Source: a virus
Lineage: Duplodnaviria > Caudoviricetes
Virus record (IMG/VR): IMGVR_UViG_3300043765_000088
Span: 1 to 29,975 of that record
DNA length: 29,975 nucleotides
Reading direction: 5' to 3' (one strand)
Shown here: positions 1,056 to 24,942 of the stretch, piece after piece
How the letters are laid out: each line of letters starts with the position of its first letter
How positions within the stretch are numbered: the first letter of the stretch is position 1
Program-made: the position numbers and the translations under genes
The notes under the pieces: model-generated
Seen by the model: only the letters and a program-made list of their open reading frames with translations
Databases searched by the model: none
What the model was told of the DNA's origin: nothing

Positions 1056-3197
1056 CTACCATCCGGTATCTGCTACAAAATGAAAACGATAAGATTGATT
1101 GGCTACACTGCTGGTCATGGAGATGTAATCCAATGACTTGGTAGTAACCTCAGCACTGGTAACAGTATAGGAAATATTTCCAGGATAAGATGTAGCCTGA
1201 TTGATTGTACCGTTACTGTAATTATATGCGGTTATCACAGGCACTTTAGCCATTGATACCGGTAATGAAATAGTGCCGAAACCATAACCAGCGGCAAAAG
1301 AGTTCATCCACTTTTCACCTGCAGCACCAGATGCGCCTACAGCTATACTATCCTCATAACTTTTATAGAAATAGCGGAGACAATCTTGACGATTAGCCGT
1401 GTACTCTTTATCGATAATGCCACTGGTCGAAGCACCTGGCTCATGTTGGACAAAAGCTATATCCAAGGTTGAACCTACGGGAGAAGCGGCAAAATTACTC
1501 TGGCCAGAGGCACCTTTTACATTACTAGCTTGCCAAATATTATTGGCTGTAGCCATAAGTGAGCTTCCGGCAAATAGGCAAAGACTAAGCGTATACCCTA
1601 CCGTACCTGGACCTAAAGGCCAAGTAGCACTAGTGCTCCAGGCTGCGATATTAGGTAAAGATACTATTGTCCAGGTATTAGCTGCGGTAAGTGCAACGGA
1701 TAAAGTTAAACTATAGGTTGGAGTACCGCTTTGTAGAGCTAGCCCAATTGTTATATTGGGCACACTGGAGCGTAAGACCAGAGTTGCTGAAGTTACACCA
1801 GCAATCAATTCTCTAAGGCGAATGCCTTCAACTGCTTGTTGTAGCCAAGCTGCATCTGAAGCGCCCAAAGTTGCTTGCTGGGCGGTAAGAGTAATTCGAT
1901 AAAAACTGGAAGACAGACTGAAATTTGCTCCAGGTAAAACTACACCACCAAGCGAAGCAGTTTGTTTACCAGTAAATGCGGCAGCTCCTGTAGTACTTAT
2001 ACCCCATAACCATCGATCTTGGCCCCAAGTACCATTGGCCCCTGAGCTGCCGGCCCCGGCAGTACGCATATCAATTTCAAAATTCGGGTTACTAATCGAA
2101 TTGAAACTTCGAACAATAGGCGCTACCAGCTTGATCTGACTAGGCAGATCATGACAAGTGTTATCACCACCAATGTAATCAGTAGCCAGTCCACTAACTT
2201 TAGTAAGCAATCCTGCCTGGGTTGTATCAGCCAGGGGTACAGTCGGCCCCACCGGTACTGGATAAGAAGCCTTGATACAATAGGTCAGAACCAGGAATGG
2301 GCTTAGAGTATTGTGTCCAGAACTACTTCCAATTGATGCTTCTGAAGCACTGATCCCAGTTGTATTTGAGTTATCCCAGAAGGCTGCAGCGTTAACTACA
2401 GAAGCTCCAGTAGTGGCAGCATAAATTCCAATCCCAGTACCAGCGGCATAAATGCCAATTCCAGTCCCGGCTGCTTGAACAGTATTATTTACGCCTGCTC
2501 GGAAAGGCTGAGCCAAGGGGTTACCCGCTCCATAAGCTGGTTGTGCACAATAGCCCGGTTGATCGTTACCGCCGCCTGCTGCACCATGATAGGAGTAGCC
2601 TAGCAGTGGGTGGGCATGCGCAGGGTCAGACACCGAGTGAGCATGGCCAGGATCTGAGATCGAATGGGCATGGCCAGGATCTGAAAAACTATGCCCGTGG
2701 GCTGGTACAACATGGGCATGCCCTGGATCTGAGATTGTGATCCCATGACTGTGCGCCGCCATCTCGGCTATGCTTAAGACATGGGTTTCCTCACCACCAG
2801 TCGCACCTAAAACTCGATTAGTTAGCCCGGTCCCTTGTCCTCCGCCCAGGATCATCCGCCCTAATAGGTTCGGTAAATTGAATGTAGTCGAACCATCACC
2901 CTGTCCAAAAGGCGAATTGACGCCACCTAATATGGTATAAAGATTAGCAAAGGTATTTCTACTCTGGGCACTCCCATCACAAAGCAGACTTCCCGTTGGT
3001 GGAGTAAGACTAGGCCAGGCAAAAATGGTACCAATCAGCATTCCTTCCGGCCCAACCGGACCTTGTGATCCAGTGGGGCCAGTACCACCCGGTCCTTGAA
3101 TACCTTGTGGTCCTTGTGCACCACCTGGGCTAACCAGTGCGCCAGTCGGTACCGCAGTACCGGGTACGGCATCCTGCTGAGTTGGTGATCCGTTCAT
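1056..3197 (-). CDS. Fibre protein: short collagen, tail-collar domain with HxH needle, linker, C-terminal putative receptor-binding domain ending ADTGW
   Basis: Gly-X-Y triplets; collar motif [33 protein letters not shown]...[18 protein letters not shown]; six HxH motifs; the C-terminal ~350 aa are paralogous to 20154..21383 and 21387..22931. Confidence 0.9.
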   Translation of the reverse strand: MNGSPTQQDAVPGTAVPTGALVSPGGAQGPQGIQGPGGTGPTGSQGPVGPEGMLIGTIFAWPSLTPPTGSLLCDGSAQSRNTFANLYTILGGVNSPFGQGDGSTTFNLPNLLGRMILGGGQGTGLTNRVLGATGGEETHVLSIAEMAAHSHGITISDPGHAHVVPAHGHSFSDPGHAHSISDPGHAHSVSDPAHAHPLLGYSYHGAAGGGNDQPGYCAQPAYGAGNPLAQPFRAGVNNTVQAAGTGIGIYAAGTGIGIYAATTGASVVNAAAFWDNSNTTGISASEASIGSSSGHNTLSPFLVLTYCIKASYPVPVGPTVPLADTTQAGLLTKVSGLATDYIGGDNTCHDLPSQIKLVAPIVRSFNSISNPNFEIDMRTAGAGSSGANGTWGQDRWLWGISTTGAAAFTGKQTASLGGVVLPGANFSLSSSFYRITLTAQQATLGASDAAWLQQAVEGIRLRELIAGVTSATLVLRSSVPNITIGLALQSGTPTYSLTLSVALTAANTWTIVSLPNIAAWSTSATWPLGPGTVGYTLSLCLFAGSSLMATANNIWQASNVKGASGQSNFAASPVGSTLDIAFVQHEPGASTSGIIDKEYTANRQDCLRYFYKSYEDSIAVGASGAAGEKWMNSFAAGYGFGTISLPVSMAKVPVITAYNYSNGTINQATSYPGNISYTVTSAEVTTKSLDYISMTSSVANQSYRFHFVADTGW

Positions 3198-5884
3198 AAA
3201 AACATTAACGAGCCTGAATATTCCATGGTGCCGAGTAAAAGAAGTTGTGCGCCAGCTCCCATTGTTTGGGCAGCAGTATCAAGTCGCGTTAGGCCAACTC
3301 CAGCCAGGCTATTAGCAAAGCACCAGTAAACCCCAACTGTTGTCCCAGCCGGGTTAGTAGCCTGAATTAAATAAATTGAGTTAGCTACTGAGGCGTATAT
3401 TCGGAGCTTGATTGGTATGCCGTAAGGCAAATGATTCAGGTTGATTGTAGTTTGGGTAGCATTTCCAGTTATATAAACATCGATGGCATCAAACCCAGCA
3501 CACTCCACAGTAACAGTAGCCTGGGCACTGAGGTAAGTGGCATTCCGGGTAATTGTCGTAATTATTCGCCAGGAAGCACCGTCATAAACGGCACCAAAAA
3601 CTCTACCACCTGGAATCTCAGTAGAACTAATCGCTACATTAGCCCGGTTAACTATTGGTTTTACCCCGGTACCATTAACATTGAGGGTTGGCGCAACTCC
3701 ACAGGGATTAGTAGGTAGTACCCAAACTACTACACCAGGAGTAAGGACAAAATCACCGGCAACACTGACTATGTACGCGCCGGAATTAGTCGTATCTGTA
3801 CCATAGTATCGACCTAAAGCTAAAGCTGCGACGGCATTAGCCAGGTTCTGGGCAGTATCAGTACCATCAATAAAATCAGTAGTTCGACCACTCAATGTGG
3901 CCATCAAGCCTGGTGCTGTGGTACTGGCTAGTGGTATCGCTGGTGCTTGAGCTGGAGTTAAAAGCGTAACCTGGTTCCCAGCCTTGGATACAACCTGCAT
4001 TGATCCTGGCTTACCAGTGCCACCACCAGCCTGATCAATCCAAAGCATCTGCCCTGGTACAACCCAGCTGGCATCTGAGACGGTGGCAACAATTGTTTGA
4101 CCAACTGGTGGTACAGTGAATCCAGCACTGGTTAAAGTAACTGCATTAGTTCCAGCTGGACCAGTTGGTCCTGCACCTCCAGCCGGTCCTGTCGGACCAG
4201 TTGGTCCTATTGGACCTGAGCCACCGACATTTGCTCCGGAGGCTACAACTGTCCCGGGTGCTGCGTTTACGGAGTAACCAAGATTTATACAAGTAGCAAC
4301 ACTCCCAGCTACTGAACTAACTGTGTAATAACCACCACCACCAATGTAAAGAACCAGGCCTTGCGAAACTCCAACCACTCCAGTCAAAGTAATTGCTACC
4401 GAAGCATTAACTGCCGGCTGGGTAAAAGCTGCTGCGGTAGTTGTGGCAACCGTAGTTCCAGCTGGTCCAGGAGGGCCAGTTGCGCCAGTTGCTCCCGGTG
4501 TTCCAGCTGCTCCAGTAACACCCGGAGGGCCTTGCGCACCGGTAGCAGATACCAAGCTTCCTTGTGCAACATTGGTCCCTACCGGAACTACTGGAGAAAT
4601 ACTGGTCAATATTACCTGGTTCCCAGTCTGAACAGCCTGGACCTGGAAGGAACCGGCTCCCGCAATAAACACATTGCAATTCGGTATAAGCCATGCCGTG
4701 TTATCAAATGGAACGGTTACAGTTTGTCCTATAGCAGGAGAACTGAATGGTGCTGTAGTCTTACTTAGCGAACTGATTCCAATTGGTCCTTGAGCACCAG
4801 TTATTCCAGCTGATCCACTGGATGTAATTAAACCGCCGGAAGGAAGAACTGTTCCTGGCGGTTGGTTTGCTGGTACTCCGGTATTAAGGATCGTTAGGGT
4901 CTGGGCATCATTTACCTGTTGAACAAGGTAATACCCAAGATTATTCAAGAACACATACTGCCCAGCCTGGACCCAATTGGTAGCAACTACCTTGAGTGTT
5001 CCATTTACGTTTACTGCCGGAGCAGTAAATGCAGCAGTTGTAGTAGTAAAACAACCTTGCCCAATTGGTCCAGTCGGTCCGGTTAATCCAGTCGGACCAG
5101 CAACTCCTACCGGTCCTTGTGGCCCAGAGCCAATTACTGGAGTTCCACTTGGAATAGCGGTGCCAGCTGCCGGGTTACCCGGTGTACCGATATCAGTAAT
5201 CGTGACATGAGTGCCGTCTGGTACTGCTGTTACACTATAATAACCAACCCAGCTGGGAGTATTAAAATAAAGAACTGTACCTGGAATCAGGCCGGTACTG
5301 GAATTTACCGGTACAGTTACAGTAGCAGGTGACTTAGCTGGAGTAACTGCTGCTGCACTGGTAACTGAAGAATACGCTACTCCCGGTGGTCCAATTGGTC
5401 CCTGTACCCCTTGTGGTCCAGTTGAACCAATATTGCCCTGTGGCCCTTGCGGACCAATTGGCCCAATTGAACCGGAAATTGATACCTGATTACCAACTGG
5501 GATTGTCGTACCTGAAGCTGCATTTCCAGTAGCTCCAGTATTAAGCAGCCCGACTGTACCTGAAGCTAGAGAATGGACTGTAAAGTAACCCGCACCCTGA
5601 ACATAAACTTCCATCCCAAGCTGAAGCCAGTTGATTGGCGTCATGTTCACCACTACCTGGGTCTGACCATCAGCTGGTGGTACTTGAAATGGAAGTGTGG
5701 TAAGGCTGACTACACCCTGCCCAGCTGCACCGGTTGGTCCTATTGGCCCAGTCGGGCCAGTTATTCCAACTGGGCCAGCTGGACCTTGTGGCCCTTCTGG
5801 GCCAGTAAAATCGATCTGAGTTTGAATCGGCCCAGCCGGCTGGATATCGACATTGATTGTACCAGTGTAATCTAGAGTTGGCAT
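3194..5884 (-). CDS. Long collagen-like fibre protein with six ~80-aa beta-rich repeat modules
   Basis: Gly-X-Y runs alternate with a repeated module (TT..FT.P.V...V.V.....W...G..VY..G.GYY.V..V....T..N.G...N..PGT.V.SG..V..SG); the sixth copy is truncated; the C-terminal region contains [13 protein letters not shown]...VYDGASW. Confidence 0.9.
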
Positions 5885-5886
5885 AG

Positions 5887-7053
5887 CTATCGATTGGTAC
5901 AGGTGTAGTACAGGGTGAGATAACCGCTATTAAAAACATCACCAACAGATTGGGCACTGATAGTGATATTGACCGTATCAACAAAAATTAAATAGGAACC
6001 GGCTTGTCCAGCAGCAGGTAAGGGAAGCCAGCCGTTCTTAGTCGAATCATGCGCCCAGCCATCATGATGAATAATGTTGGCTAAAAAAGTGATATTGTGC
6101 GCAACTGTGCCGGTATTATTACTACCTGGTAACGCACCCAGATTGATTGTTTTTTGGTAAACCTTGCTTCCATCAAGCCAGAGCCGGCCAGTCCATTGCT
6201 CATTAGTCGAATAGTTTAGTACACCCGTGGGCGGTAACGCTATCCAGGCACTACTCTGGCGCCCATAAAACTGGCCATCAGTTGGTGCTTCCGGTACTGA
6301 TCTAGACCAGGTTGCGTTTTCTCTGCCATAAATTGTTCCATCTTGGGGTGCTTCCAATACTACGGTCGGCGGAAGCTCATTAATCGGAAGCAATCCATTT
6401 TGATCTAGACCGGCATACCCATTGGGGTAATTCTTACTAGTTTGTAACTCAACTATTCCAATAGTACCGCTTACACTGGCCCAAGGAATACTATCAGCTG
6501 TATCTACAATCCCGTTATTGTTTTTGTCATAAACGCTTAAGCGCATCTCACCACCAGCGTCAGCAAACATGGCATGATCAACCAGATCTGGATTAGTTGA
6601 TCCGGCGCCAATAGCGTAGTCAGTCTTGAGCATGACATCACCGACTACGCCACCACTGGGAGGCGGGGTACCACCACCACCGACTGGTGGAACATTACCA
6701 TTCCCGGTACTCATCATTCCTGGTACTGCCGTAATCGGCCAGGTGCCGGCCATGATCGTAGTGATATTTCCAACTGGATCGGCCATATCCAGGTTGAAGT
6801 AATACGATCCTGGCTCAAGCGTACCAGTCAGACTACCTGGAACTTCAAAAGTAGTTTCTCCGTTTGGAGAAAGTGCAGTCTGAATCCAGCTGATATTAAC
6901 TGGTGGCTGGAGCTTGCCACTTAAGTCTTTGTTGGCAATAAAGGAAAAGGCATATCCGGTAATATCAATTGGTGACCCGTTCTGGTTGACGATCACATTA
7001 AACGTCATCGAGTTGCCCTTGGGGCAAGCTGGAAGTCCAACAGTATTACCCAT
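5887..7053 (-). CDS. Tail fibre / fibre-adapter protein with BppU-like N-terminal Ig domain
   Basis: N-terminal FNVIV..NGSPIDITG...L.PG.YYF.L...D..G.ITT...G pattern; two EAPxDGxxYGR...W repeats; NGYAGLD.NG..P motif; C-terminal YSTNEQWTG..WLDG.KVYQKT domain seen in phage fibres. Confidence 0.7.
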   Translation of the reverse strand: MGNTVGLPACPKGNSMTFNVIVNQNGSPIDITGYAFSFIANKDLSGKLQPPVNISWIQTALSPNGETTFEVPGSLTGTLEPGSYYFNLDMADPVGNITTIMAGTWPITAVPGMMSTGNGNVPPVGGGGTPPPSGGVVGDVMLKTDYAIGAGSTNPDLVDHAMFADAGGEMRLSVYDKNNNGIVDTADSIPWASVSGTIGIVELQTSKNYPNGYAGLDQNGLLPINELPPTVVLEAPQDGTIYGRENATWSRSVPEAPTDGQFYGRQSSAWIALPPTGVLNYSTNEQWTGRLWLDGSKVYQKTINLGALPGSNNTGTVAHNITFLANIIHHDGWAHDSTKNGWLPLPAAGQAGSYLIFVDTVNITISAQSVGDVFNSGYLTLYYTCTNR

Positions 7054-9691: not shown

Positions 9692-10677
9692 TATCTGTAG
9701 CCCATGAATTGTACGTACCCCACCGAAATGTAAGGCGGTATACGACTGATCACGTCATCTTTCATCTTGGCATGTTGATCAATTGGATACTGCCAGTACC
9801 CGGCAAAACTTTGTACACTAGCTGCTGGTCCAGGTGCTGCCACTGACCGTTGTCCACCAGTTGCTACACCACCAGGACCGGCATAAATCAGCTCATAATT
9901 ATTATGTGCGCCTCCTTGCATATTGAGGTCCACATTTACCCCAGGAAAATTCTCGCCCGCATTACCAAAATTAAATGCCGCTAGTTGCAGTAGACGCCAA
10001 CCACCGCTGGCTGCATCCAATGGCGCAATCTCTGCAGCTGTCCTGGCTGGAGGATATATAGTAGTAAAGTAATCAGTAGAGTAGGGCTCTTTAAATGTTC
10101 TCCCTGGACCAACTCCACCACCACCCGGACCTTTACCGCCTGGCTGATCTAGCGCACAACCAACATTAGTAATCCAGTTCCCAGGCTGTGCGCCAGAACC
10201 GGGAACAGCATAACCATTTGGGTTATAGGCATATCGATAGCCAGGAACAATAAAATGATTCAGTAAATTAAATGTCTGATTGTTCCCATTACAAATAGCC
10301 CAGCCTTCCCAACCGGAATTGTGCAAGCCGTTCCCACTGGAATCGAAGAACTCAGTCCAAGGTCCGTCAAAAAGACGAATTTCTCCTATTTTACCAGTGT
10401 TAATTTGGTACCAGTCATTTCTATATCCAGACATTACCCGAGGAGCCCAGGGTGCCCCAGCTCCTCCACCAGTCAGCATCCAAATCCAAAGCCCGTCTAA
10501 GCTGGCATTAGCGGCAGCTGCATCAGAACCAGTTGATACTACTATTGATGGACCCGATACTTGCGCCTCGTAATCAGTATACTGAGCGACTGCTTCCAAG
10601 ACTCCCTGCATATCATTGGGAACCGTATAATCAGCTGGTACACTTTTGGGAGTAGCTGTAACAGGAATTGGAATCAT
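9691..10677 (-). CDS. Short fibre/spike protein with tail-collar-like domain (paralog of 8987..9691)
   Basis: GWAICNGNNQTFNLLNHFIVPGY and C-terminal IPPYISVGYVQFMGY; ATGA overlap with the upstream gene. Confidence 0.7.
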   Translation of the reverse strand: MIPIPVTATPKSVPADYTVPNDMQGVLEAVAQYTDYEAQVSGPSIVVSTGSDAAAANASLDGLWIWMLTGGGAGAPWAPRVMSGYRNDWYQINTGKIGEIRLFDGPWTEFFDSSGNGLHNSGWEGWAICNGNNQTFNLLNHFIVPGYRYAYNPNGYAVPGSGAQPGNWITNVGCALDQPGGKGPGGGGVGPGRTFKEPYSTDYFTTIYPPARTAAEIAPLDAASGGWRLLQLAAFNFGNAGENFPGVNVDLNMQGGAHNNYELIYAGPGGVATGGQRSVAAPGPAASVQSFAGYWQYPIDQHAKMKDDVISRIPPYISVGYVQFMGYR

Positions 10678-13094
10678 GGCAGCGGTACTCCTGGTTCAAC
10701 CAAGATTGAACGCACTGGCGGTAACGGTCCCGGCTCTATGGAAAGACCCAGCATTTCATCCACAGTTTTCTTTGGCGTATACTGCAGGCTAATCCCTCCA
10801 GAACGAACTGCGGCCTTGCCGTTTAAAGAACAATCTATTTCTCCATCATAAGCATCATTGTAAATCTGCCATTTTAGAGATGGCATTATGGCTAAACGTG
10901 CTGTTGGAGAACGGGTATCAAAAAACCAAGCAGCAATATACTGTGGTCCAGCCGGCTCTAGACCCAGTGTGGCACAGTAAAGCGCAATTGCCTGATACAC
11001 TTCATCAATAGCGAAATCTGATCCATAAGGTCCTTGGATATTCCAGAGGTGATAATTGTTCCAAAACACAGCAGCATTAGCATTCTGGAAATCTTCATAA
11101 CTGGTTGGAATATTCGCTGCACCATTGTATTGAATGGTTTCTGGGCGAGTAAATGGATCAGCAGCACTACCTGCAATTGAGCTATATCCGGTAATCGTCA
11201 GCCAATTCTTCATGTTTGGCTGCCAAGCTGTCCGAATCCCATTATAAGAATCCTCAAAATAAAACTCACCACCGGAAAGGTTATCGCCTTGCCCCAAAAG
11301 AAACTTGAGCCAGTAAATCCGGCCATTCCAGGTGCTGTATCCGGTTGGTTGTACATAAGGTGCAGGAGGATTCCCCATCCAAGCAGTCTGGTTTACACTC
11401 GGCATGACAAAGGTCGTGCCACTAGCTGGTGTAACATTCTGATCCTGCGCCCAGTTAACTTTAATTGATACGCTAGTTGGTGTATAAACCAACTCTATGG
11501 CGCCATGCCAGAGAGTGAAAAGCGATACAGATAAAGTCGTACCATTGCTCTGGGGCAACTGAAGTGTAATTGTCCCTTCAATGACATCGACATTAAGACC
11601 GAATGCGCTATTGAATACCCGATAGTTCTGGCTGGTTGAACTAGTCAGGGCATTCAGGGCAAAATCAATTTCAAATTCTAGTTGGCTATTGTCTGGAATA
11701 CTAGCTGGCGCGCTAAAATAGCAATAAGCCTCAGTATCAAATTCAACATAATTTGAATGGATATCTGGAATTAAGGCGATTCCACCATTATCTGGATTTA
11801 GCGTACCTAAATCGCTAAGTATTAAAGCATTACCTATAATATGAGTACAGACTTTTGGATCGCCTGGACAAATGGCAATTGGTGGAGTACAACCGGCTAA
11901 TCGCCCTGGAATACGCGGATAATAATGGTTAAAATCCAGCCATTCCTCGATATCTTTTACTCCATTAATACGTGGATTAATTGATGCTTGAGCTAATCCA
12001 GTCTTGAAATTGTTGGTAGTATTGTAGATTAATCGGTCAGTATATGGACTCCCCCGCCACTGAAAATTCTCTAAATAAAAACTATATGCTTCACCTCGAA
12101 GCGTATTTAGCACTAGCTGCGTTGTGTTCTCAGAATTGTCTAGAGCTAATGGCGCAAACCAATTTACCCCAACCAAATCAAGCTCAGCGGTAGTCCAAAG
12201 TGGATCTAGGTTATTGGGATAATAGGCAATCAGGTATGGATAGTAGTACTCATCCAAATCGGCAAAATAAGTAACCAATGAATTAGACAATTGCTGCTTA
12301 GCGTAACGTATCAACCACTGAAATGCTGCAATCACTTGAGGAAATACAGTCCTATTGATTGCTGTCAGATCCCGCATACCGGACCCAATTGAAAACAGCC
12401 AGGGTCGAATATTGTTGGCTACACAAAGATCAATATAATGCTTAATGAATGCAGTATAATTATTTAGGTAGAAAGTCAGCTGCGCCGTAGATGCCCAGGA
12501 TTTATTATTCCGGTCAATTTCCCATTCACCACCATTTTGGTAATAGTAGTTTTGCGTAAGCAAAGCGTTAATGGGCAATAAGCCAACTTCATACCCCTGG
12601 CTTTGCAGATACTGTATACCCTGGATCAGAGTAGTATCCTCGGGAGTTGGCCAGACCTGATGGTTGTTCTTTAACCAATAGGCATTACTTCTAGTCCACG
12701 AGCCCACTTGCCATATGGGCGGTGCATTGGACCAATTCCAGCTTTGTACTTCTGGACCAATGGCTGGACCAACTTGATACAACCAACCGCTACCACTATC
12801 ATTGGCGGTATACCAATAGATCGCAATCAATACCCGCTTGACAGTAGGCAGCTGTTTTAAATCATTTTGGACCAGATAAACCAAATCACTCATCGATGAG
12901 CTAGCTGGATCAGTCTGATATGACTGGGTATTTACTCCATAACTTCCACCAGCAAAACTTGCACCAGTCCAGTAGCCTCCAGTAGCCATGCCATACTCGC
13001 CATAGGGCCGAATCACCACGGTATCCGGCAAGAACTGAGGTACGAATACCTTGTATGAACCAACCTGATAACTAAAATCTCCTGGTATACTCAT
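10674..13094 (-). CDS. GTA-type TIM-barrel (glycoside hydrolase-like) tail protein with an inserted beta-rich domain
   Basis: Ordered motifs matching the gene-transfer-agent megatron TIM barrel as I recall it: GYEVGLLP, FIKHY, IGSGMRDLT, VTYFADLDEY, LDPLW...LDLVGVNWFAPL, GEAYSFY, KDIEEW...H, TAWQP, AWFFDTRSP. Confidence 0.7.
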   Translation of the reverse strand: MSIPGDFSYQVGSYKVFVPQFLPDTVVIRPYGEYGMATGGYWTGASFAGGSYGVNTQSYQTDPASSSMSDLVYLVQNDLKQLPTVKRVLIAIYWYTANDSGSGWLYQVGPAIGPEVQSWNWSNAPPIWQVGSWTRSNAYWLKNNHQVWPTPEDTTLIQGIQYLQSQGYEVGLLPINALLTQNYYYQNGGEWEIDRNNKSWASTAQLTFYLNNYTAFIKHYIDLCVANNIRPWLFSIGSGMRDLTAINRTVFPQVIAAFQWLIRYAKQQLSNSLVTYFADLDEYYYPYLIAYYPNNLDPLWTTAELDLVGVNWFAPLALDNSENTTQLVLNTLRGEAYSFYLENFQWRGSPYTDRLIYNTTNNFKTGLAQASINPRINGVKDIEEWLDFNHYYPRIPGRLAGCTPPIAICPGDPKVCTHIIGNALILSDLGTLNPDNGGIALIPDIHSNYVEFDTEAYCYFSAPASIPDNSQLEFEIDFALNALTSSTSQNYRVFNSAFGLNVDVIEGTITLQLPQSNGTTLSVSLFTLWHGAIELVYTPTSVSIKVNWAQDQNVTPASGTTFVMPSVNQTAWMGNPPAPYVQPTGYSTWNGRIYWLKFLLGQGDNLSGGEFYFEDSYNGIRTAWQPNMKNWLTITGYSSIAGSAADPFTRPETIQYNGAANIPTSYEDFQNANAAVFWNNYHLWNIQGPYGSDFAIDEVYQAIALYCATLGLEPAGPQYIAAWFFDTRSPTARLAIMPSLKWQIYNDAYDGEIDCSLNGKAAVRSGGISLQYTPKKTVDEMLGLSIEPGPLPPVRSILVEPGVPLP

Positions 13095-14896: not shown

Positions 14897-16666
14897 TTAT
14901 GTGCTTTGAATAACGTGATCAGTACCGCCATTATCACAAAAATGAAATTTAAGATCATCTCCTAGATAAAGATACGCTGCCGTATATCCTCGATTCTGAA
15001 ATCCGATTCCAGCTCGAGGGGATGGATTTTGTGCGTAGGTAGAATTAGTGGAAATGATCAATGCTGCACGCTGCCAAGCCGTAGAATTTATTCCGACATC
15101 TTTCCAAAGCTGGATTGCACCACTGAAGTAATTAAAGACTGCACCATTAGCCGCCTGACCACCGTTATTATTCATCGGTGGATAATTCAGACCATAGGCA
15201 TTGGGACTATTTGCTTGAGTACAAACTGGCGAATTTAAGCCGTAAGCATATGGACTGTTGGCATCAGTAAGCACTGTCGAATTTATGCCCCAGACGTATG
15301 GGCTATTGCTGCTATCCATCAACACACGAACTGTGCCGCCGGCATCAATAGTTCGCATGCTTGCATCAGTTTCAAAATAAAGTGAGCAAGCATATCCTAG
15401 ACCGGCATGCCAGAAAGCAATCTGGGGTCGAGCACCGGACGTTGTACACTGCACTCGAATTGGTGCGCCTTCCCAAGAAGTCGATCCTAAACCCCATTCC
15501 CGTTGCCAAGCAAACACGCTAGTATTGGTCATCTGGTCCCCATTCCAGTTTACTGGGCGATAACCTAAATTAGCTTGAGCAACTCCAGCGGCAAGAGTAC
15601 CGGCTGTGATTGATCCAGCTGCTATTTGACCACCTGGAATTGAAGAGATTGAGGAAAGTAGGGTTGCAGCAGTTCCATCTCCATATTCCAAATTTAGATC
15701 TGCATGACCGCTATTGAACCAAATTGCTACTGATCCTCCACCAGGTGCAAGGCGCGCTAAACCAATTGTCGGATAGCCGGCACCAGTAGGTGACACTTCA
15801 GCAAATAAGTGGGCATTCTGGTACATATTGGCATTTACATTCGGTCCACTCATCAACACAGCCAATTGCCCGCTCATGGTATCTCCAGTCTTATTGACTG
15901 GTTCGTATCCCAGATTTACGGCAGCAACACCAAGGGCAAGTTTATCTGAGGTTACTGCTTGACTAGCAATTGCCGCAGTAGTTACTCCTCCGGCTACGAC
16001 TGAATCAGATTGTTCAACAATTCCATCATGATCCGGATCATAGACGGCTTGGGTCATATCACCAGCACCCACACTGGCTGGATACCATCCCAAAACACCG
16101 TTTGGATCAGTCCCATACCGCATGTCCGGACCAGGAGAAGCTTTATCACCAATTAAAGAAACAGTTAAATCACCGGAAAGCGGACCACCTCCTTCAATAG
16201 AGAACGAGGTGTTGACCATCCTTGTATTAGGTACCTTGGCTGCCAGGTCACTAACTAAGTTGGTAACATTACTCTCTGAAATTGGTACAGTAGGAGGAAA
16301 AGTCAGCGGTAATCCGGTAATACCACTCCAAGGTACGCTGGCAGCTTTGGCAACAATTCCAGAAGCAGTTGGATCATAAGTACTCTGGAGCATGACCCCA
16401 GGAGTATTACCGGCCAGGACTGAGGAAGTAATGACAAGCGCATTACCATCAGATGCCTGTGCAATTGTAACTCCAGTACCAGCCTGTAATCGATAAAAAG
16501 CTAAACCGGAATTCTTATCTGTACCTTGTAAAACAGGCTGTCCATCTGAAGTAGTTCCTAGACTATAACCAGACAAGACTGCACCAGCAGTAGGTGCAAG
16601 TGTTCCTTGGACCTCGCGACCGAGATCAACCTTTTTGCCAAGTGGAGTCCAGCCGTTATTGCTCAT
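14897..16666 (-). CDS. Tail fibre protein with internal repeats
   Basis: Two M.Q..YDP...GIV motifs; I.ES.VTNLVSDLAAK and GGGPLSGDLT.SL fibre motifs; three L[GN]Y.P[VM]N..G-led domains; three NSP.[AV][WY]G[IL]N repeats. Confidence 0.75.
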   Translation of the reverse strand: MSNNGWTPLGKKVDLGREVQGTLAPTAGAVLSGYSLGTTSDGQPVLQGTDKNSGLAFYRLQAGTGVTIAQASDGNALVITSSVLAGNTPGVMLQSTYDPTASGIVAKAASVPWSGITGLPLTFPPTVPISESNVTNLVSDLAAKVPNTRMVNTSFSIEGGGPLSGDLTVSLIGDKASPGPDMRYGTDPNGVLGWYPASVGAGDMTQAVYDPDHDGIVEQSDSVVAGGVTTAAIASQAVTSDKLALGVAAVNLGYEPVNKTGDTMSGQLAVLMSGPNVNANMYQNAHLFAEVSPTGAGYPTIGLARLAPGGGSVAIWFNSGHADLNLEYGDGTAATLLSSISSIPGGQIAAGSITAGTLAAGVAQANLGYRPVNWNGDQMTNTSVFAWQREWGLGSTSWEGAPIRVQCTTSGARPQIAFWHAGLGYACSLYFETDASMRTIDAGGTVRVLMDSSNSPYVWGINSTVLTDANSPYAYGLNSPVCTQANSPNAYGLNYPPMNNNGGQAANGAVFNYFSGAIQLWKDVGINSTAWQRAALIISTNSTYAQNPSPRAGIGFQNRGYTAAYLYLGDDLKFHFCDNGGTDHVIQST

Positions 16667-17733
16667 AAGACAAAGAAACTGACGCCATTGGAGTAAACAA
16701 AAACGTGTCCATATGGGATATCGATCACATAAGTCGATTGTCCCTGGATCAAACTGCCATCACTGGTAGTTAAAGTAATTGGATACTGATCTGCTGTACC
16801 CGTTTCATCTTTAATCACTACGAATCGGGCCATCCAATTCGTAATTGGAGCTAAAACCACATTCATCGGTACGGCTACAGTTGGAGTTGAAACTCCAACT
16901 AGAGTTTCTGTTCCAGTTAAAAGAATTGGAGTAGCCGCATAATTACGTCGAGTAAAACTTAAACCTATGGCCGACTGCCAACTGACACCTGGATCTGCGG
17001 TTGGATCAACCGTCAGTACTAACCCAGCCATATTGGCTATTGGTACCCGGACATTGGTAGTACCATCATAAGCAATCAGGTCACCTTTAGTTGTAGTAGG
17101 TGCAATCTCATTAAACGATACCTGTAGCTCACTTTGAGGCGCCCATCTTAAACCGCTGGGAACAGTGTTATCAGTGATTAAAACTTCACCATTAGCATCA
17201 GAAACAATGGCAATATTATGGGCATTATCATGCCCGATAACTTGTCCAGGACCGGTTAATGGCGATAGGTTATCAAATGCACCCGTTGGAGTAGCTGACG
17301 CTGTTCCACCCAAGTTGATCCCAAGCGGTGAAGTTAAAATCCAAGGTGGTCCTTGCGGTCCTTGTAATCCAGAAGGAGCAACTTGAATACCTGTACCGAC
17401 CTGTGATCCAGGTGCGAGATTGCCTGGATAACCAAGATTGGTCAGCACCATGACTGAAAGGGTGCTGACAAAAGCAACCTGATAATAACCAACCCCCAGC
17501 AGATAAACAACTTGGGTTGGTGTAGCCCATTCAGCTGGGTCTACTGAGACATTTACATTAGAGCCAACTGCTGGAACAACAAAAGGCGCTGTAGAAAGAC
17601 CAAACGCATTTTGGCCATCAATTCCTTGCGGCCCGGTTGCTCCTTGTGGACCAGTCGGTCCCGGTGGACCGGGCGTTCCACTGATCGGAGGACAATCGGG
17701 TTCGCATTGGCAACCTAAAGCTATTAGTGACAT
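16663..17733 (-). CDS. Collagen-containing fibre / fibre-anchoring protein
   Basis: Cys-rich N-terminus (CQCEPDC), Gly-X-Y run, one complete ~80-aa module, LGINLGGTAS and TTKGDLIAYDG fibre motifs, C-terminal beta domain (VIKDETG...PITL...DG..IQG...VYSNG). Confidence 0.75.
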   Translation of the reverse strand: MSLIALGCQCEPDCPPISGTPGPPGPTGPQGATGPQGIDGQNAFGLSTAPFVVPAVGSNVNVSVDPAEWATPTQVVYLLGVGYYQVAFVSTLSVMVLTNLGYPGNLAPGSQVGTGIQVAPSGLQGPQGPPWILTSPLGINLGGTASATPTGAFDNLSPLTGPGQVIGHDNAHNIAIVSDANGEVLITDNTVPSGLRWAPQSELQVSFNEIAPTTTKGDLIAYDGTTNVRVPIANMAGLVLTVDPTADPGVSWQSAIGLSFTRRNYAATPILLTGTETLVGVSTPTVAVPMNVVLAPITNWMARFVVIKDETGTADQYPITLTTSDGSLIQGQSTYVIDIPYGHVFVYSNGVSFFVL

Positions 17734-20153: not shown

Positions 20154-21383
20154 TTACCAACCAGTATCAGCTTGCCACTGGCCTAAGCAATCGCACCATG
20201 CATTAGCAGAACCAGCGGCAGCAAGATGATAAGACTGTATCCCATAAATACTTACTCCATAACTGGATACAGCAAAATCACCTTCCAGATAAATTGAAGG
20301 CGGTGCCATTGTCCAACCAGTGGTAGATGCTGTCGGAACCTTTGCCATTGTTGGCTGAAATATGGCATTAGACAGAATCTCGGTACTTGAAGCTGCTCTG
20401 TTTTGACCAATCAAAGCATATTCTGTAGTCGTTGTTCCAAACTTGCAGTTACAACTCTTCTGGTAATATCGACGGCACTGATTCTCGTTGGTCGATATAT
20501 CTAGATCGACCAGATCATTGCAGTATGGTCCTGGCTCATACTGCACAAAGCCGATATCGAATGTGCTATTAACCGGAAGTGAAGCGAAATTGGTTTGTGT
20601 GGGTGAACCTAAAAAATTGCCAGCAACCCAGTTGCCAAGTGAGGGAGCCGTATAGGTTGAACCAGCCACTAAACAGACTCCAATGTTCAAATAAGTGCCC
20701 GCTGCACCAGAAAAACTGCCAGAGGAAGTAAAAACCGGAATATTTGGCAGGGGAACCAAGGTCCAAACATTAGCCGTACTCAAAGTCGCTTGTTGGACTA
20801 AACAATACGCATTTGTGCCATCACGAATTTGTACCCCAAAAGTAATTGGGGCTTGGCTAGAGCGGCAGACAACGGAGATACTAGTTGGACCACCCAGAAG
20901 TTCTCGATAACGCGGTCCTTCTACCCATTGCTGCATTCCAACAAGATCAGTAGCAGCCAAGGCCGCTTTCTGCGCGGTTAGCGTGAAGCGCAAGAAGCGT
21001 CCACTGATACAATAATTGGTGCCTGGAACAAAAACATTCCCAACAGTCGGCACCCAGCTTCCAGTTATTGGCGCACCTCCTATCCAGCCGTACCAGCGGT
21101 CTTGTATGTAGCCACTTACTGTAATGCCAGCGAACGCCAATCGCTGATCAACCTCGAATGTCGGGTTGCCAACGGTATTGTACCGATTGCTGGAAACAAA
21201 AATCTGACTGTCACTTCCATTCCTGGCTAGGTTCCCAGCATCAGTACTGATCCCAGGCGTAGGCGTAGCTGGCCCAGTTGCTCCGGTCGGCCCAACCACT
21301 CCCTGAATCCCTTGCGCCCCGCCGGGAGTGACAATCACTCCACTTGGAACATTCGTACCAGCTATGGCAATCGGGTTAGACAT
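20154..21383 (-). CDS. Short fibre: brief collagen plus ADTGW-type C-terminal putative receptor-binding domain
   Basis: GNPTFEVDQR..QDRW..FLRFTLTAQ..VEG...RELLGG..FDIGFVQYEPG..CRRYYQKS..ADTGW; ISTDAGNLARNGSD linker. Confidence 0.85.
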   Translation of the reverse strand: MSNPIAIAGTNVPSGVIVTPGGAQGIQGVVGPTGATGPATPTPGISTDAGNLARNGSDSQIFVSSNRYNTVGNPTFEVDQRLAFAGITVSGYIQDRWYGWIGGAPITGSWVPTVGNVFVPGTNYCISGRFLRFTLTAQKAALAATDLVGMQQWVEGPRYRELLGGPTSISVVCRSSQAPITFGVQIRDGTNAYCLVQQATLSTANVWTLVPLPNIPVFTSSGSFSGAAGTYLNIGVCLVAGSTYTAPSLGNWVAGNFLGSPTQTNFASLPVNSTFDIGFVQYEPGPYCNDLVDLDISTNENQCRRYYQKSCNCKFGTTTTEYALIGQNRAASSTEILSNAIFQPTMAKVPTASTTGWTMAPPSIYLEGDFAVSSYGVSIYGIQSYHLAAAGSANAWCDCLGQWQADTGW

Positions 21384-21386
21384 AAG

Positions 21387-22931
21387 TTACATACCCGTGT
21401 CTGCCGCCCAGGAAACGGCAACGTAGTCATTTGCTGCTGGGGTAACCGTTACAGAAATGCCGTGATTGCCTCTTGAGGTGATGCCCCAAGGTGTTTGACT
21501 TGAGACAGTGTAAGAAGCCCCAGAGGGCCAGCCATAAGCACCGTTAGCCGCTCCTGTACTTGGATTGAAATAACGTACTGTCGGTGTTTTAGCCATCTCT
21601 ACAGGCCACAGCATATTACCCATATTCCAGTTCCAGGTGCTGCCCATTGCGATATACGCACACCCAGATAGACCGGAAGTGGACCCTTCCCTCAGATTGT
21701 AGGCATAACTTTTTGCATAATAACGAAGGCATTCCTGGTAGTTTTGCGGAAAATTTTTATCAAGGAACGGCGTGCATTGGCTCCCTGGCTCATGCTGTAT
21801 AAACCCAATATCCAGCGTGGTATTGACCGGAAGCGCACAAAAATTGCCTTGTCCGGCAGCACCTATAAAATTCCCGTTCTGCCATGTGTCATTAGCTGGA
21901 GCCATGTATGTTGACCCACACATAAGCGTAATAGCCAAGTAGTAACCTCCTACTCCAGGCTGCAAAGACCATGTGGCACCAGGAGTCCAGATTGGCATGT
22001 TTGGCAGAGAAATTATAGTCCACACATTGGCCGTTGAAATAGAGGCTAACTTCGTTAAAGAGTGAGCAGATCCCGTATCTCGCAAGGCTAACCCAAAACT
22101 AATAGGGGCACTGCAACGAGCTAAAATGGAAAGAGAATGAACGCCTCCGATTAATTCGCGAAGGAAACAACCTTCAATTTGCTCCTGAATAAATATATAA
22201 TCACCGGCAGGCGGTGCTGTTTCCTGAGCAGTGACAGTAAGCCGCAGAAATTTGGAAGAAATACAGACACTCGTTCCTGGTATAATAACGCCCGTGGGTG
22301 ATGCATCAGTTACTTTCCAACCAACGCCAGCTCCGCCACTAGCAATGTAGTTCCAAGACCAACGATCTATGCCGAAAGTGCCGCTTGCTCCAGGACCTGC
22401 CCCAACCGTCCGAGCATCCACCTCAAAATTGGGATTTCCAATCACGTTTACGGCTCGAGTTCCCTGCACCACCGCCAAGCTGTGACAGGCGTTATCGCCG
22501 CCGATATAATCGGTCGAGTTGCCACTCAAGGTATTGACTAGGCCGGGAGTGGTGGTGCTGGCCGTAGGGATCGTTGGCGGTGCTGTAGGATTTAAAAGAG
22601 TTACATTATTCCCGTTAATTGCTGTAACCTGTAGAACTCCCGGTGAGCCGGCCCCACCGCCGCCGGCCTGATCGACATAAACTAACTCACCTATTGTAAC
22701 CCAGGCGACATTAACAAATGTAACTACTGTCGTTGACCCGACTGCCGGTACTGTAAACGCGCTGGATGTAGTGGTAAAAGCAGCTTGTCCGGTTATTCCT
22801 TGGATACCTTGATTACCCTGTGGTCCAACCGCACCTTGCACACCTTGCACACCCTGTGGTCCCTGATCACCGGCTGGTCCAATTAAACTGCCACTAGCTA
22901 CTACAGTACCAGGTTGTGATTGAACAAGCAT
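21387..22931 (-). CDS. Fibre: collagen, truncated module, linker, ADTG[WM]-type C-terminal domain
   Basis: Gly-X-Y run; GNPNFEVDAR..DRW..IEG..LRELIGG..LDIGFIQHEPG..CLRYYAKSY..ADTGM. Confidence 0.85.
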   Translation of the reverse strand: MLVQSQPGTVVASGSLIGPAGDQGPQGVQGVQGAVGPQGNQGIQGITGQAAFTTTSSAFTVPAVGSTTVVTFVNVAWVTIGELVYVDQAGGGGAGSPGVLQVTAINGNNVTLLNPTAPPTIPTASTTTPGLVNTLSGNSTDYIGGDNACHSLAVVQGTRAVNVIGNPNFEVDARTVGAGPGASGTFGIDRWSWNYIASGGAGVGWKVTDASPTGVIIPGTSVCISSKFLRLTVTAQETAPPAGDYIFIQEQIEGCFLRELIGGVHSLSILARCSAPISFGLALRDTGSAHSLTKLASISTANVWTIISLPNMPIWTPGATWSLQPGVGGYYLAITLMCGSTYMAPANDTWQNGNFIGAAGQGNFCALPVNTTLDIGFIQHEPGSQCTPFLDKNFPQNYQECLRYYAKSYAYNLREGSTSGLSGCAYIAMGSTWNWNMGNMLWPVEMAKTPTVRYFNPSTGAANGAYGWPSGASYTVSSQTPWGITSRGNHGISVTVTPAANDYVAVSWAADTGM

Positions 22932-22932
22932 G

Positions 22933-24942
22933 TCAGTACTTAATAATGTAGTTTACCACTACATAAGGAGGCATGTTGTTATGAGCATTTCCACTGCCAA
23001 CACTGGTTGAACTAGCTGATATTCCAGTACCAGCTGAGTAAATGCTTATTCCTGTAGCAGCGGCAGCCAGACCGCAAGCAGCAGCATAAAGACCACAACC
23101 TGATGCAGAATTATAACATCCAGTACCAGCTGCGGCAGAATTTATATTATTAACACCAATATTATATTGTAATGGAGCCGTTGCGGGCACTGCTTGGTTA
23201 GTAGCAGTATATCGAGGAGCAATAACATGAAGATGACTTGGATCATTAAAACCATGGTTATGCCCTGGATCACCATGGTTATGTCCTGGATCACCATGGT
23301 TATGCCCGGGATCATATACTGAATGAGCGTGCCCAGGATCACTAATATTAATTGTATGACTATGCGCAGCTAACTCGGCAATTGTCAGAGCATGCACAGC
23401 TTCACCACCAGTAGCTCCCAAGGCATAAGTAGTACTATTTGCTCCTAAAGGAAACGCCCCTTGCATGGGCGGCAAATTAAAAGTAGTAGATCCATCTCCA
23501 ACGCCATAGGTAGTTCCAATTACCTGGTAAAGTCCGACGAAAGTTGTTCGGCTTTGGGCGCTGCCATCACAAATTAACCAGCCACTTGGTGCCACACTTC
23601 CGCCAAACATCTGGATTGAGCCAACCGGACAAGCTGCTCCAGCACCAGCATTCACTGGTGGATTTTGCAAAGTAAGCTGGTTACCGGTTTTAGCCGTAAC
23701 CTGCATCGCACCGGCCTGAGCGGCACTGCCACCAGCTGTGGCGACATCGACAATCTGACCAACTACAACCCAGCTGGCATCAGCTATTGTGACTGTAACT
23801 GTCTGCCCAACTGGTGGAATCGTAAAACTGGCAGTTGTCGGAGCCCAGGAATTACCTCCTTGTGGTCCAGTTGCACCAGTTCCGCCAGTTGCACCTGTTG
23901 GTCCAGCTGGACCTGTATTTCCAATTGGCCCTTGTGCTCCAGTTGCCCCGGTATTTCCAATCGGTCCTTGTGCGCCAGTTGCTCCAGTCGGACCAGGGTT
24001 ACCTTGTAATCCCTGCGGCCCGGCTGGACCAGTTGCTCCTGTATCACCAGTTGGTCCCTGTGCTCCTTGAGCACCAGTCGCACCAGTCGCGCCGGTATTT
24101 CCAACTGGCCCTTGCGCGCCTGTAGCACCTGTCGGCCCAGCCGGACCTTGAGGTCCAGCCGGACCAGTACCTGTTAAAGTAGACCCACTGGGCGCAATTG
24201 ATCCGGGTGCTTCGTTAACGGCATAACCGAGGTTATCAAGAGTAAGTTGGTTTGCGCCAGTATTAACTGCTGTGATCGAAAGGTATCCAATAGGCGAGAT
24301 ATAGACGATCCCACCTACATTGAACTGAGCCGCACCGCCGCTGGCAACATTGGCCACCGCTGTCGCATTGACAGCCGGCAATGTAAAAGCACTGGTAAGC
24401 GTCGTATAGGCACTAGCTCCACCTGGTGGTCCTTGAGGCCCAGTTGCACCTTGTGGCCCAGTTGGCCCAGTATTTCCAACCGGGCCTTGCGGTCCAGTTG
24501 CCCCAGTTGGACCAGCTGGACCCGCTGGTCCGGTTGGTCCAGCCGGTCCGCCCGGATCTCCCGGCGGTCCTTGTGGCCCAGTTGGCCCTACTGGACCGGT
24601 ATTACCGGGAGGAATCGATTCCCATTCAGCATTCTGACGCCCATAAACCTTGCCATCAGTTGGCGCCTCTGGAATCCCACCACCAGTCCCACCACCGCCT
24701 TTAATGACTTGCGCTGCAGTTAGTAACGCCGCTGCTTCAAAATCGATATTCTTCTCGCCGTAAGCGTAATACTCTCCAAAAAGCTTGAGTACACTTGGAT
24801 CAATCGCGCCACCATCTTTATCAATTTGCGCGAGAGTAAGAGTCGCTGCCGTTTCCGAATTCCAGTTGCCCTCTCCTTGGGCTAAGTAATCCTTAAACAG
24901 CTGGAGCGTTGCTGGATCAATGTCTGGATAGGTTAGCGGCAT
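22933..24942 (-). CDS. Collagen fibre with duplicated N-terminal helical domain, two modules and C-terminal tail-collar/HxH needle
   Basis: Two long Gly-X-Y tracts; [51 protein letters not shown] collar motif; HxH repeats; ends [16 protein letters not shown]. Confidence 0.9.
23252..23314. repeat. Three tandem 21-bp coding repeats (DPGHNHG)
   Basis: ccatggttatgccctggatca / ccatggttatgtcctggatca / ccatggttatgcccgggatca. Confidence 0.9.

Follow-up and report, generated by a model that had tools for sequence, protein, structure and literature searches.

Predicted strand complementation between neighbouring collagen-like fibre proteins of a soil metagenome phage

Fibre genes and divided modules at the locus

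The IMG/VR virus record IMGVR_UViG_3300043765_000088 (Duplodnaviria; Caudoviricetes) is linear, with a completeness estimate of 38%, and its positions 1 to 29,975 make up the stretch of DNA analysed here, referred to as the window. This DNA is contained in soil metagenome runs, none of the runs listed being RNA. Five genes of the window, A to E, encode collagen-like fibre proteins built around a small repeated module. Judged from the sequence, the last segment of the module is missing from three copies, here termed sockets, and opens the very next gene directly before collagen as what we term a plug, where it is conserved under selection. The long genes of the window, all fibre genes included, lie on the minus strand.

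Module copies were delimited by cutting the proteins between collagen runs. An initial annotation of this DNA had described a module of about 80 residues shared by the fibres, and the seven complete copies that it counted were found, each of about 85 residues (one in 22933-24942, five in 3194-5884 and one in 16663-17733). Also recovered were the three copies with a long, Gly-rich loop that end at T-L-x-N/T-P and lack the last segment; they extend a few codons beyond the N-terminal ends first given for them. Just four open reading frames of the window carry the module, which bears out that the terminal genes 20154-21383 and 1056-3197 have none. A degenerate DNA pattern for the long-loop form matched exactly the three truncated copies, with 0 matches in 100 shuffles.

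The last segment was scored with a 16-column profile trained solely on the in-chain (cis) tails of short-loop modules. The seven complete copies scored 19.9-31.1 bits, as against 2.6, -4.1 and -7.6 bits behind the three truncated copies. At the N-termini of the three following genes the profile gave 18.5, 20.5 and 22.7 bits, and the plug in each runs straight into Gly-X-Y, so that the next gene opens with the missing segment and collagen in all three cases, as had been proposed. The gene after 16663-17733 scored -0.2 bits and, again as annotated, has no such start. The fibre genes, their parts and the control gene are as follows.

22933..24942, minus strand: fibre A, 669 amino acids (aa); N-terminal region, foldon-like motif, collagen, one complete barrel, collagen, socket, Collar tip
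24157..24423, minus strand: complete short-loop module of fibre A; in-chain tail 27.8 bits
23659..23859, minus strand: socket A, long-loop, without the last strand; in-chain tail 2.6 bits
21387..22931, minus strand: fibre B, 514 aa; plug followed by 11 Gly-X-Y triplets, a socket and a tip domain
22869..22931, minus strand: plug B, N-terminal last-strand segment; 18.5 bits
22587..22790, minus strand: socket B, long-loop, without the last strand
20154..21383, minus strand: fibre C, 409 aa; plug, then short collagen and a tip akin to that of B; chain end, carrying no module
21318..21383, minus strand: plug C, 20.5 bits; residues 3-21 are the modelled interface with socket B
3194..5884, minus strand: fibre D, 896 aa; five complete barrels with collagen spacers, socket, tip; no plug
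4208..5722, minus strand: five complete short-loop modules of fibre D (5456-5722, 5108-5383, 4799-5062, 4523-4780, 4208-4459)
3953..4153, minus strand: socket D, long-loop, without the last strand; in-chain tail -7.6 bits
1056..3197, minus strand: fibre E, 713 aa; plug, then collagen, a Collar domain and a tip akin to those of B and C; chain end, carrying no module
3120..3197, minus strand: plug E, 22.7 bits
16663..17733, minus strand: control gene; collagen and one complete module (17359-17616), no socket; next gene without plug

Two other explanations were rejected. Run X1, from which this DNA possibly derives, has one contig that covers each fibre region with zero differences, and contigs of run X2 cross all three stop/start junctions with no gap listed; because contigs of two runs bridge the junctions, the gene splits are unlikely to be assembly errors. 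Completion of socket A within its own chain by the start of the Collar domain was a loose alignment, scoring 9.3 bits with a 7-sequence seed profile and 2.6 bits with the final one. One X2 contig omits 198 bases in the tip of fibre D (window 3244-3443), as in a strain with an altered tip.

Plug-socket adjacency and selection across related loci

The initial annotation had set linkage of plug and socket across related phage genomes as a test. Besides the window's own, 298 related loci (L numbers below) were gathered from viral, metagenome and genome collections. Removal of window-derived loci, 62 GTDB loci and matches below 28 bits, followed by de-duplication, left 202 module copies; the 62 GTDB pattern matches included no module match of at least 28 bits among the matches listed. 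Loop length in the 202 unique copies was bimodal, with 94 short (13-17 residues) and 105 long (19-22) loops and 3 others excluded. A cis last strand followed 75 of 94 short-loop copies, a figure that is partly circular since the profile was trained on them, versus 7 of 105 long-loop copies.

There were 129 module-bearing genes, of which 20 had no callable next gene, 77 had an open socket and 32 were closed-only. The next gene began with a plug after 55 of the 77 open-socket genes and after 0 of the 32 closed-only genes (Fisher 2e-13), and the same adjacency counted as clusters at 65% identity was 26/41 versus 0/25. Counted in reverse, 63 of 640 called genes begin with a plug, and 51 of these stand directly behind an open socket; five of the 63 have no upstream gene in the locus, and 62 lead into collagen. 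The plug motif begins 1-11 residues past the Met. Among 62 aligned plugs, a set picked by profile score, G9, G15 and P20 each reach at least 90%, and plugs are alike across phages (mean column identity 51%).

Plugs are under purifying selection. Comparison of the three window plugs with relatives gave 22.5 synonymous changes per 57 sites and 8.5 non-synonymous changes per 153 sites, that is, a proportion of non-synonymous differences (pN) of 0.056 against a synonymous proportion (pS) of 0.395 (Fisher 3e-8). The corresponding values for sockets were pS 0.45 and pN 0.099. Several plug columns are more conserved than those of in-chain tails.

Forty loci show the adjacency. Five of them contain a Baseplate_J homolog, and nine, the window included and two from one contig, contain homologs of the window's head or tail-like genes. 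Because the adjacency loci differ in this respect, the joint is used in more than one virion type. One contig (L185) carries five genes with both plug and socket in series, followed by a gene with a weak plug. What follows the socket within its own protein varies: across 98 open sockets it is one fibre motif in 54, collagen in 7, a stop codon in 6, a foldon-like motif in 6, two other motifs in 6, other sequence in 17 and the contig end in 2. Where the gene ends at the socket (6 of 98), a plug follows in four of the five cases with a callable next gene. The domain also occurs fused, a long-loop barrel with a plug-type strand in cis, in 7 copies (L124 twice, L208, L108, L141, L024, L096).

Other arrangements were observed beside these. 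In L124, L136 and L185 an unrelated gene of 80-90 aa separates socket gene from plug gene, so strict adjacency is not required. Open sockets number two or three in single proteins of L111, L110 and L193, in some cases arranged in tandem with no intervening collagen, and the region has fewer plugs. A second N-terminal motif, Met-Pro/Ala...Asn/Thr-Ile-Lys-Gly-Pro, stands directly before collagen in other fibre genes (L185:10342-12092, L159:7589-11832, L110:4701-6079, L200:754, L015:7092) and may be the plug of another joint. A frame of 2353 codons (L019/L020:7223-14284), present in viral contigs of 221 kb and 473 kb, has 11 complete modules in tandem and no socket.

Predicted structure of the joint and its alternatives

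The complete module, modelled from the last fibre D copy with a 72-row alignment, reached a predicted local distance difference test score (pLDDT) of 91.1, with strands at 5-8, 20-25, 36-39, 43-51, 54-59 and 77-81. The prediction is thus a six-stranded beta-barrel, with the segment absent from sockets as its last strand. Its closest solved folds are the JBD30 baseplate (8rk3; Z 9.1, root-mean-square deviation 2.4, 77 residues aligned) and the Mystique tail tube (9n71; Z 8.9, deviation 2.2, 72 aligned), a likeness that reflects a common arrangement and tells nothing of function. phrog_31840 was matched by 51 of 72 complete copies, and the Nodularia phage protein A0A482MJ42 (BFVD) resembles the complete module at a template modelling (TM) score of 0.95 and 41% identity. 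These relatives have the same fold as the complete module, but as intact domains. Against Pfam the module matched no family at E<0.009, sequence searches of solved structures found no homolog, and the socket stretch had zero matches in 50,697 cultured-phage records. The best matches in fold searches were six-stranded barrels, with the T4 gp10 chain absent among the matches listed.

Binding was predicted when three copies of socket B were modelled with three copies of plug C, the start of the next gene. Three runs scored 0.61, 0.57 and 0.62 versus 0.01, 0.00 and 0.00 for controls. The mark for this score, which applies only roughly here, was attained for 116 of 157 solved complexes as opposed to 2 of 215 mismatched pairs. 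The runs had at least 81% of contacts in common, with a partner pLDDT of at least 57. Plug residues 3-21 contact socket residues 13-26, 44-54 and 58-62; the best-defined pairs, within one copy, join socket 21/23/50/51 to plug 12, 46/48 to 18 and 17 to 16. The contacts 17-16, 21-12 and 23-10 run antiparallel, and the C-end of the plug adjoins the N-end of the socket. Taken with the strand list, the models place the plug antiparallel to socket strands 1 and 3, at what would be the position of the in-chain last strand.

The plug most probably completes the barrel in trans, strand complementation joining one fibre to the next, as gene order and models together suggest. The long-loop barrel would be one strand short at its end, and into this gap the N-terminal segment of the next fibre protein would insert as the last strand, linking separate collagen-like proteins into chains, here A-B-C and D-E. 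Because the plug C-end adjoins the socket N-end, the child's collagen would exit where the parent's collagen enters and so extend the trunk. The parent chain past the socket would leave the far side of the barrel via a Pro-rich linker, its tip becoming a side branch in all three window cases, and a gene that ends at its socket would give a plain end-to-end link. The long Gly-rich loop likely stands in for the in-chain linker and clamps the leader of the plug. The chained fibres would be branched and carry several tips.

Several points weigh against this reading. The next gene lacks a plug after 22 of the 77 open-socket genes. Of these misses, which include at least one gene counted twice (L159/L184), 12 have a relaxed-score plug within 1.5 kb, often past one small gene; two of these plugs also follow a socket that is closer to them, and two rows are one gene. 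The other 10 have no plug within 1.5 kb, some being near contig ends. Sockets outnumber plugs in L111, L105 and L110. Given a search pattern biased towards sockets and the relatedness of the loci, the adjacency counts are not independent trials. The complex controls were three unrelated proteins, not sibling plugs, and the complex joins two halves of one domain, which commonly pass such tests by likeness to the intact fold; the model therefore supports binding without showing it. A trimeric child and a trimeric parent tip cannot share one three-fold axis. The socket is, moreover, modelled confidently by itself (pLDDT 91.5, 85 rows) and is perhaps stable without the plug. Independent folding of the truncated module had been named as an outcome that would undo the proposal. 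In that respect the result is divided: the socket alone is confident, so that folding may not depend on the plug, and its first strand loses its strand assignment when the plug is absent.

Covariation between partners was weak. A Mantel correlation gave r 0.17 (16/1000 permutations), and the best covariation between the two parts was exceeded in 7 of 200 shuffles and lay off the modelled contacts; the data behind these figures included one false own-plug row. In 17 proteins socket similarity correlated with that of the downstream plug at r 0.284 and with that of the protein's own plug at r -0.004, a difference that was not significant in a swap test (262/2000). Linkage, predicted binding and selection support the plug-and-socket reading of the initial annotation, with its putative branched chain; the fixed cognate order A to B to C does not find such support.

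As the downstream plug does not track the socket significantly better than the own plug does, each middle protein might fold its own plug into its own socket as a circularly permuted barrel, in which case only the first and last proteins would pair in trans and no long chain would form. A short linker could conceivably close such a hairpin because the plug C-end lies beside the socket N-end in the model, and in some middle proteins (L012, L124, L143) plug and socket stand only about 6-12 residues apart. We nevertheless consider self-closure unlikely. Fibres A and D have a socket without a plug and C and E a plug without a socket, so these four need pairing in trans. In B, 11 Gly-X-Y triplets part plug from socket; a triple helix of such triplets would keep its two ends apart. 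Self-closure would also leave a middle protein unattached, although L185 retains five such genes in a row.

It is likewise rather improbable that plugs dock interchangeably on an already folded open barrel by strand addition, the plug not being needed for folding and making no choice of partner, which would give mixed or unordered chains in place of a fixed A-B-C. The confident model of the socket alone fits this, as do the weak covariation and the likeness of plugs to one another. So do weak Foldseek neighbours of the socket alone, which include SlyD chains (E 0.15-0.28); the SlyD insert domain takes peptides as an added strand. Interchangeable docking is, however, a variant of complementation in trans, the plug still taking the last-strand position, and the strict gene order, plug behind socket, hints at ordered or co-translational pairing.

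Joining at the nucleic acid level, in which excision, splicing or bypass of the tip cassette would yield a single fused fibre, much as in tip-switching systems, is very unlikely. Fused long-loop forms do occur in other loci. Direct repeats between socket end and plug start did not exceed those of shuffled pairs; 51 of 55 pairs share at most 8 bases, and the four long matches come from genes that end at the socket, so that the two ends overlap. Across 55 plug genes, the start codon (ATG in 54 of 55, lying -26 to +32 from the upstream stop) was the sole conserved DNA motif ahead of the plug. Neither locus shows a socket-to-plug joint in the contigs of either DNA run, contigs being prone to drop rare variants, and the joints that are listed connect other sites. 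That the pattern is a neutral remnant of a tip cassette inserted in an ancestral repeat gene, with a dead half-module on either side, had been named beforehand as a way for the proposal to fail and is hardly credible: the anatomy would be the first product of such an insertion or fission, and this is a plausible origin of the joint, but the plugs are under purifying selection, truncation is tied to a distinct loop subtype, and phages both possessing and lacking Baseplate_J genes have the arrangement.

Beyond complementation in trans as such, one could envisage a universal split-barrel joint in which any plug-bearing fibre fits any socket, yielding extendable, combinatorial fibre trees; new tips would be added as a plug-collagen-socket-tip cassette, and a self-closed precursor would possibly be opened by strand exchange with no chaperone or usher. 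We regard this extended scheme, taken whole, as a tentative possibility and somewhat doubtful.

Known branched fibres, genomic setting and neighbouring genes

The closest functional parallel is found in KP32, K11 and KP34, podophages of Klebsiella, where the first receptor-binding protein (RBP1) has a branching domain and RBP2 a conserved N-terminal peptide (PMC13352976, PMC6872550). In the available parts of these sources, as here, neighbouring genes encode the two fibres and the downstream one has a short conserved N-terminal peptide in place of an anchor; the peptide docks on a domain within the upstream fibre, as is predicted here, to give several tips on one anchor. The branching site there is described as T4gp10-like and the spikes as depolymerases. 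In the present case a single barrel, intact elsewhere in the same proteins, is divided into socket and plug; collagen forms the shafts, and a given joint recurs in series (L185). The joint would work like the KP32 branching-domain/peptide pair and is at most a candidate member of that group. Multi-branched tailspike complexes of G7C, CBA120, the Menlow group and phiKp24 (10.1101/2022.03.15.484430, PMC6872550) are similar in that primary, secondary and tertiary fibres dock on each other, but their docking relies on T4gp10-like folds together with N-terminal domains that span tens to hundreds of residues, and the accessible text describes no split repeat domain. In the T5-like phage DT57C, LtfA and LtfB form a branched lateral fibre with the second fibre attached through the first, the joint being unresolved in the structure, as far as the accessible portion of the report goes (PMC10713586).

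As to mechanism, chaperone-usher pili, through donor-strand complementation, and type V pili, through strand exchange, offer the same principle in the part of PMC7616799 consulted, one subunit's terminal strand finishing its neighbour's fold. Sequence and models predict both an acceptor short of one strand and a partner whose N-terminus supplies it here. The likeness drawn in the initial annotation, in outcome to branched spikes and in mechanism to pilus donor strands, is supported to that extent; it does not reach to the pilin fold or the chaperone and usher genes. The pilin fold is an immunoglobulin (Ig) fold, whereas the present module is a small six-stranded barrel on likely trimeric collagen chains with a side branch possible at each joint, and no chaperone or usher families were found among the 17 window proteins scanned, the record being 38% complete.

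No published description of a split-module joint in phage fibres was found, in agreement with the initial annotation, in a search that left subscription papers and supplements largely aside; 10.1101/2022.03.15.484430, PMC10713586 and PMC12143355 treat branching or adaptors and, in the text available, describe no split repeat. The feature is real, recurrent and selected, and would represent a new form of branched fibre assembly whose mechanism is well supported but unproven. The coexistence of intact, fused long-loop and split forms of one domain would also show how such a joint can arise. If correct, the mechanism would provide a structural rule for hanging several phage fibres on one anchor, with wiring legible from sequence as plug after socket, and would mean that donor-strand complementation, known from bacterial pili, also serves viral collagen fibres. 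A 68-residue socket and a plug of about 20 residues are also a potential trimer-compatible protein connector.

The fibres combine Gly-X-Y runs with fibre domains (Collar, foldon-like motif), as expected of collagen-like phage fibres. Pfam Collagen was matched by A, B, D and 16663-17733 and Pfam Collar by A and E; no Pfam family of beta-helical depolymerase domains was found on fibres A-E. Collagen and gene context suggest that the fibres are trimeric and virion-borne, and their putative tips are likely host-binding. Fibre A, which has no plug, starts with a unit of about 38 aa repeated twice and then the foldon-like motif; Fibritin_C was below cut-off on it (E 0.02), and its N-terminal region gave only Atlas leads, all <0.9. 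The tip of fibre B matches PHROGs phrog_27782 and phrog_4492, and fibre C is 42% identical to fibre B.

Fibres A, B and C are encoded upstream of a 388-aa gene for which phage capsid families figure among the language-model neighbours, a lead only. Because the A-B-C chain (24961-20154) is sited between putative scaffold and capsid genes, away from tail genes, it may be a head or neck fibre. Labels such as portal, scaffold, nozzle and tube were assigned to other genes by size and position only, and searches of solved structures found no relative for the putative capsid or portal. Fibres D and E (5884-1056) close a run of tail-like genes. A 388-aa gene at 5887-7053, which precedes fibre D, matches Fibritin_C above cut-off and phrog_1084 at its N-end; its product is a candidate anchor or adaptor for the D-E chain. 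The control gene 16663-17733 has a Cys-rich N-terminus with a weak T4_gp9_10_N match (E 0.001, below cut-off) and is nearly identical in L009 and L012. Amid the tail-like genes, 10674-13094 encodes an 806-aa protein with a gene transfer agent (GTA) TIM-barrel-like domain (Pfam E 8e-12); it may be a tail component that acts on glycans.

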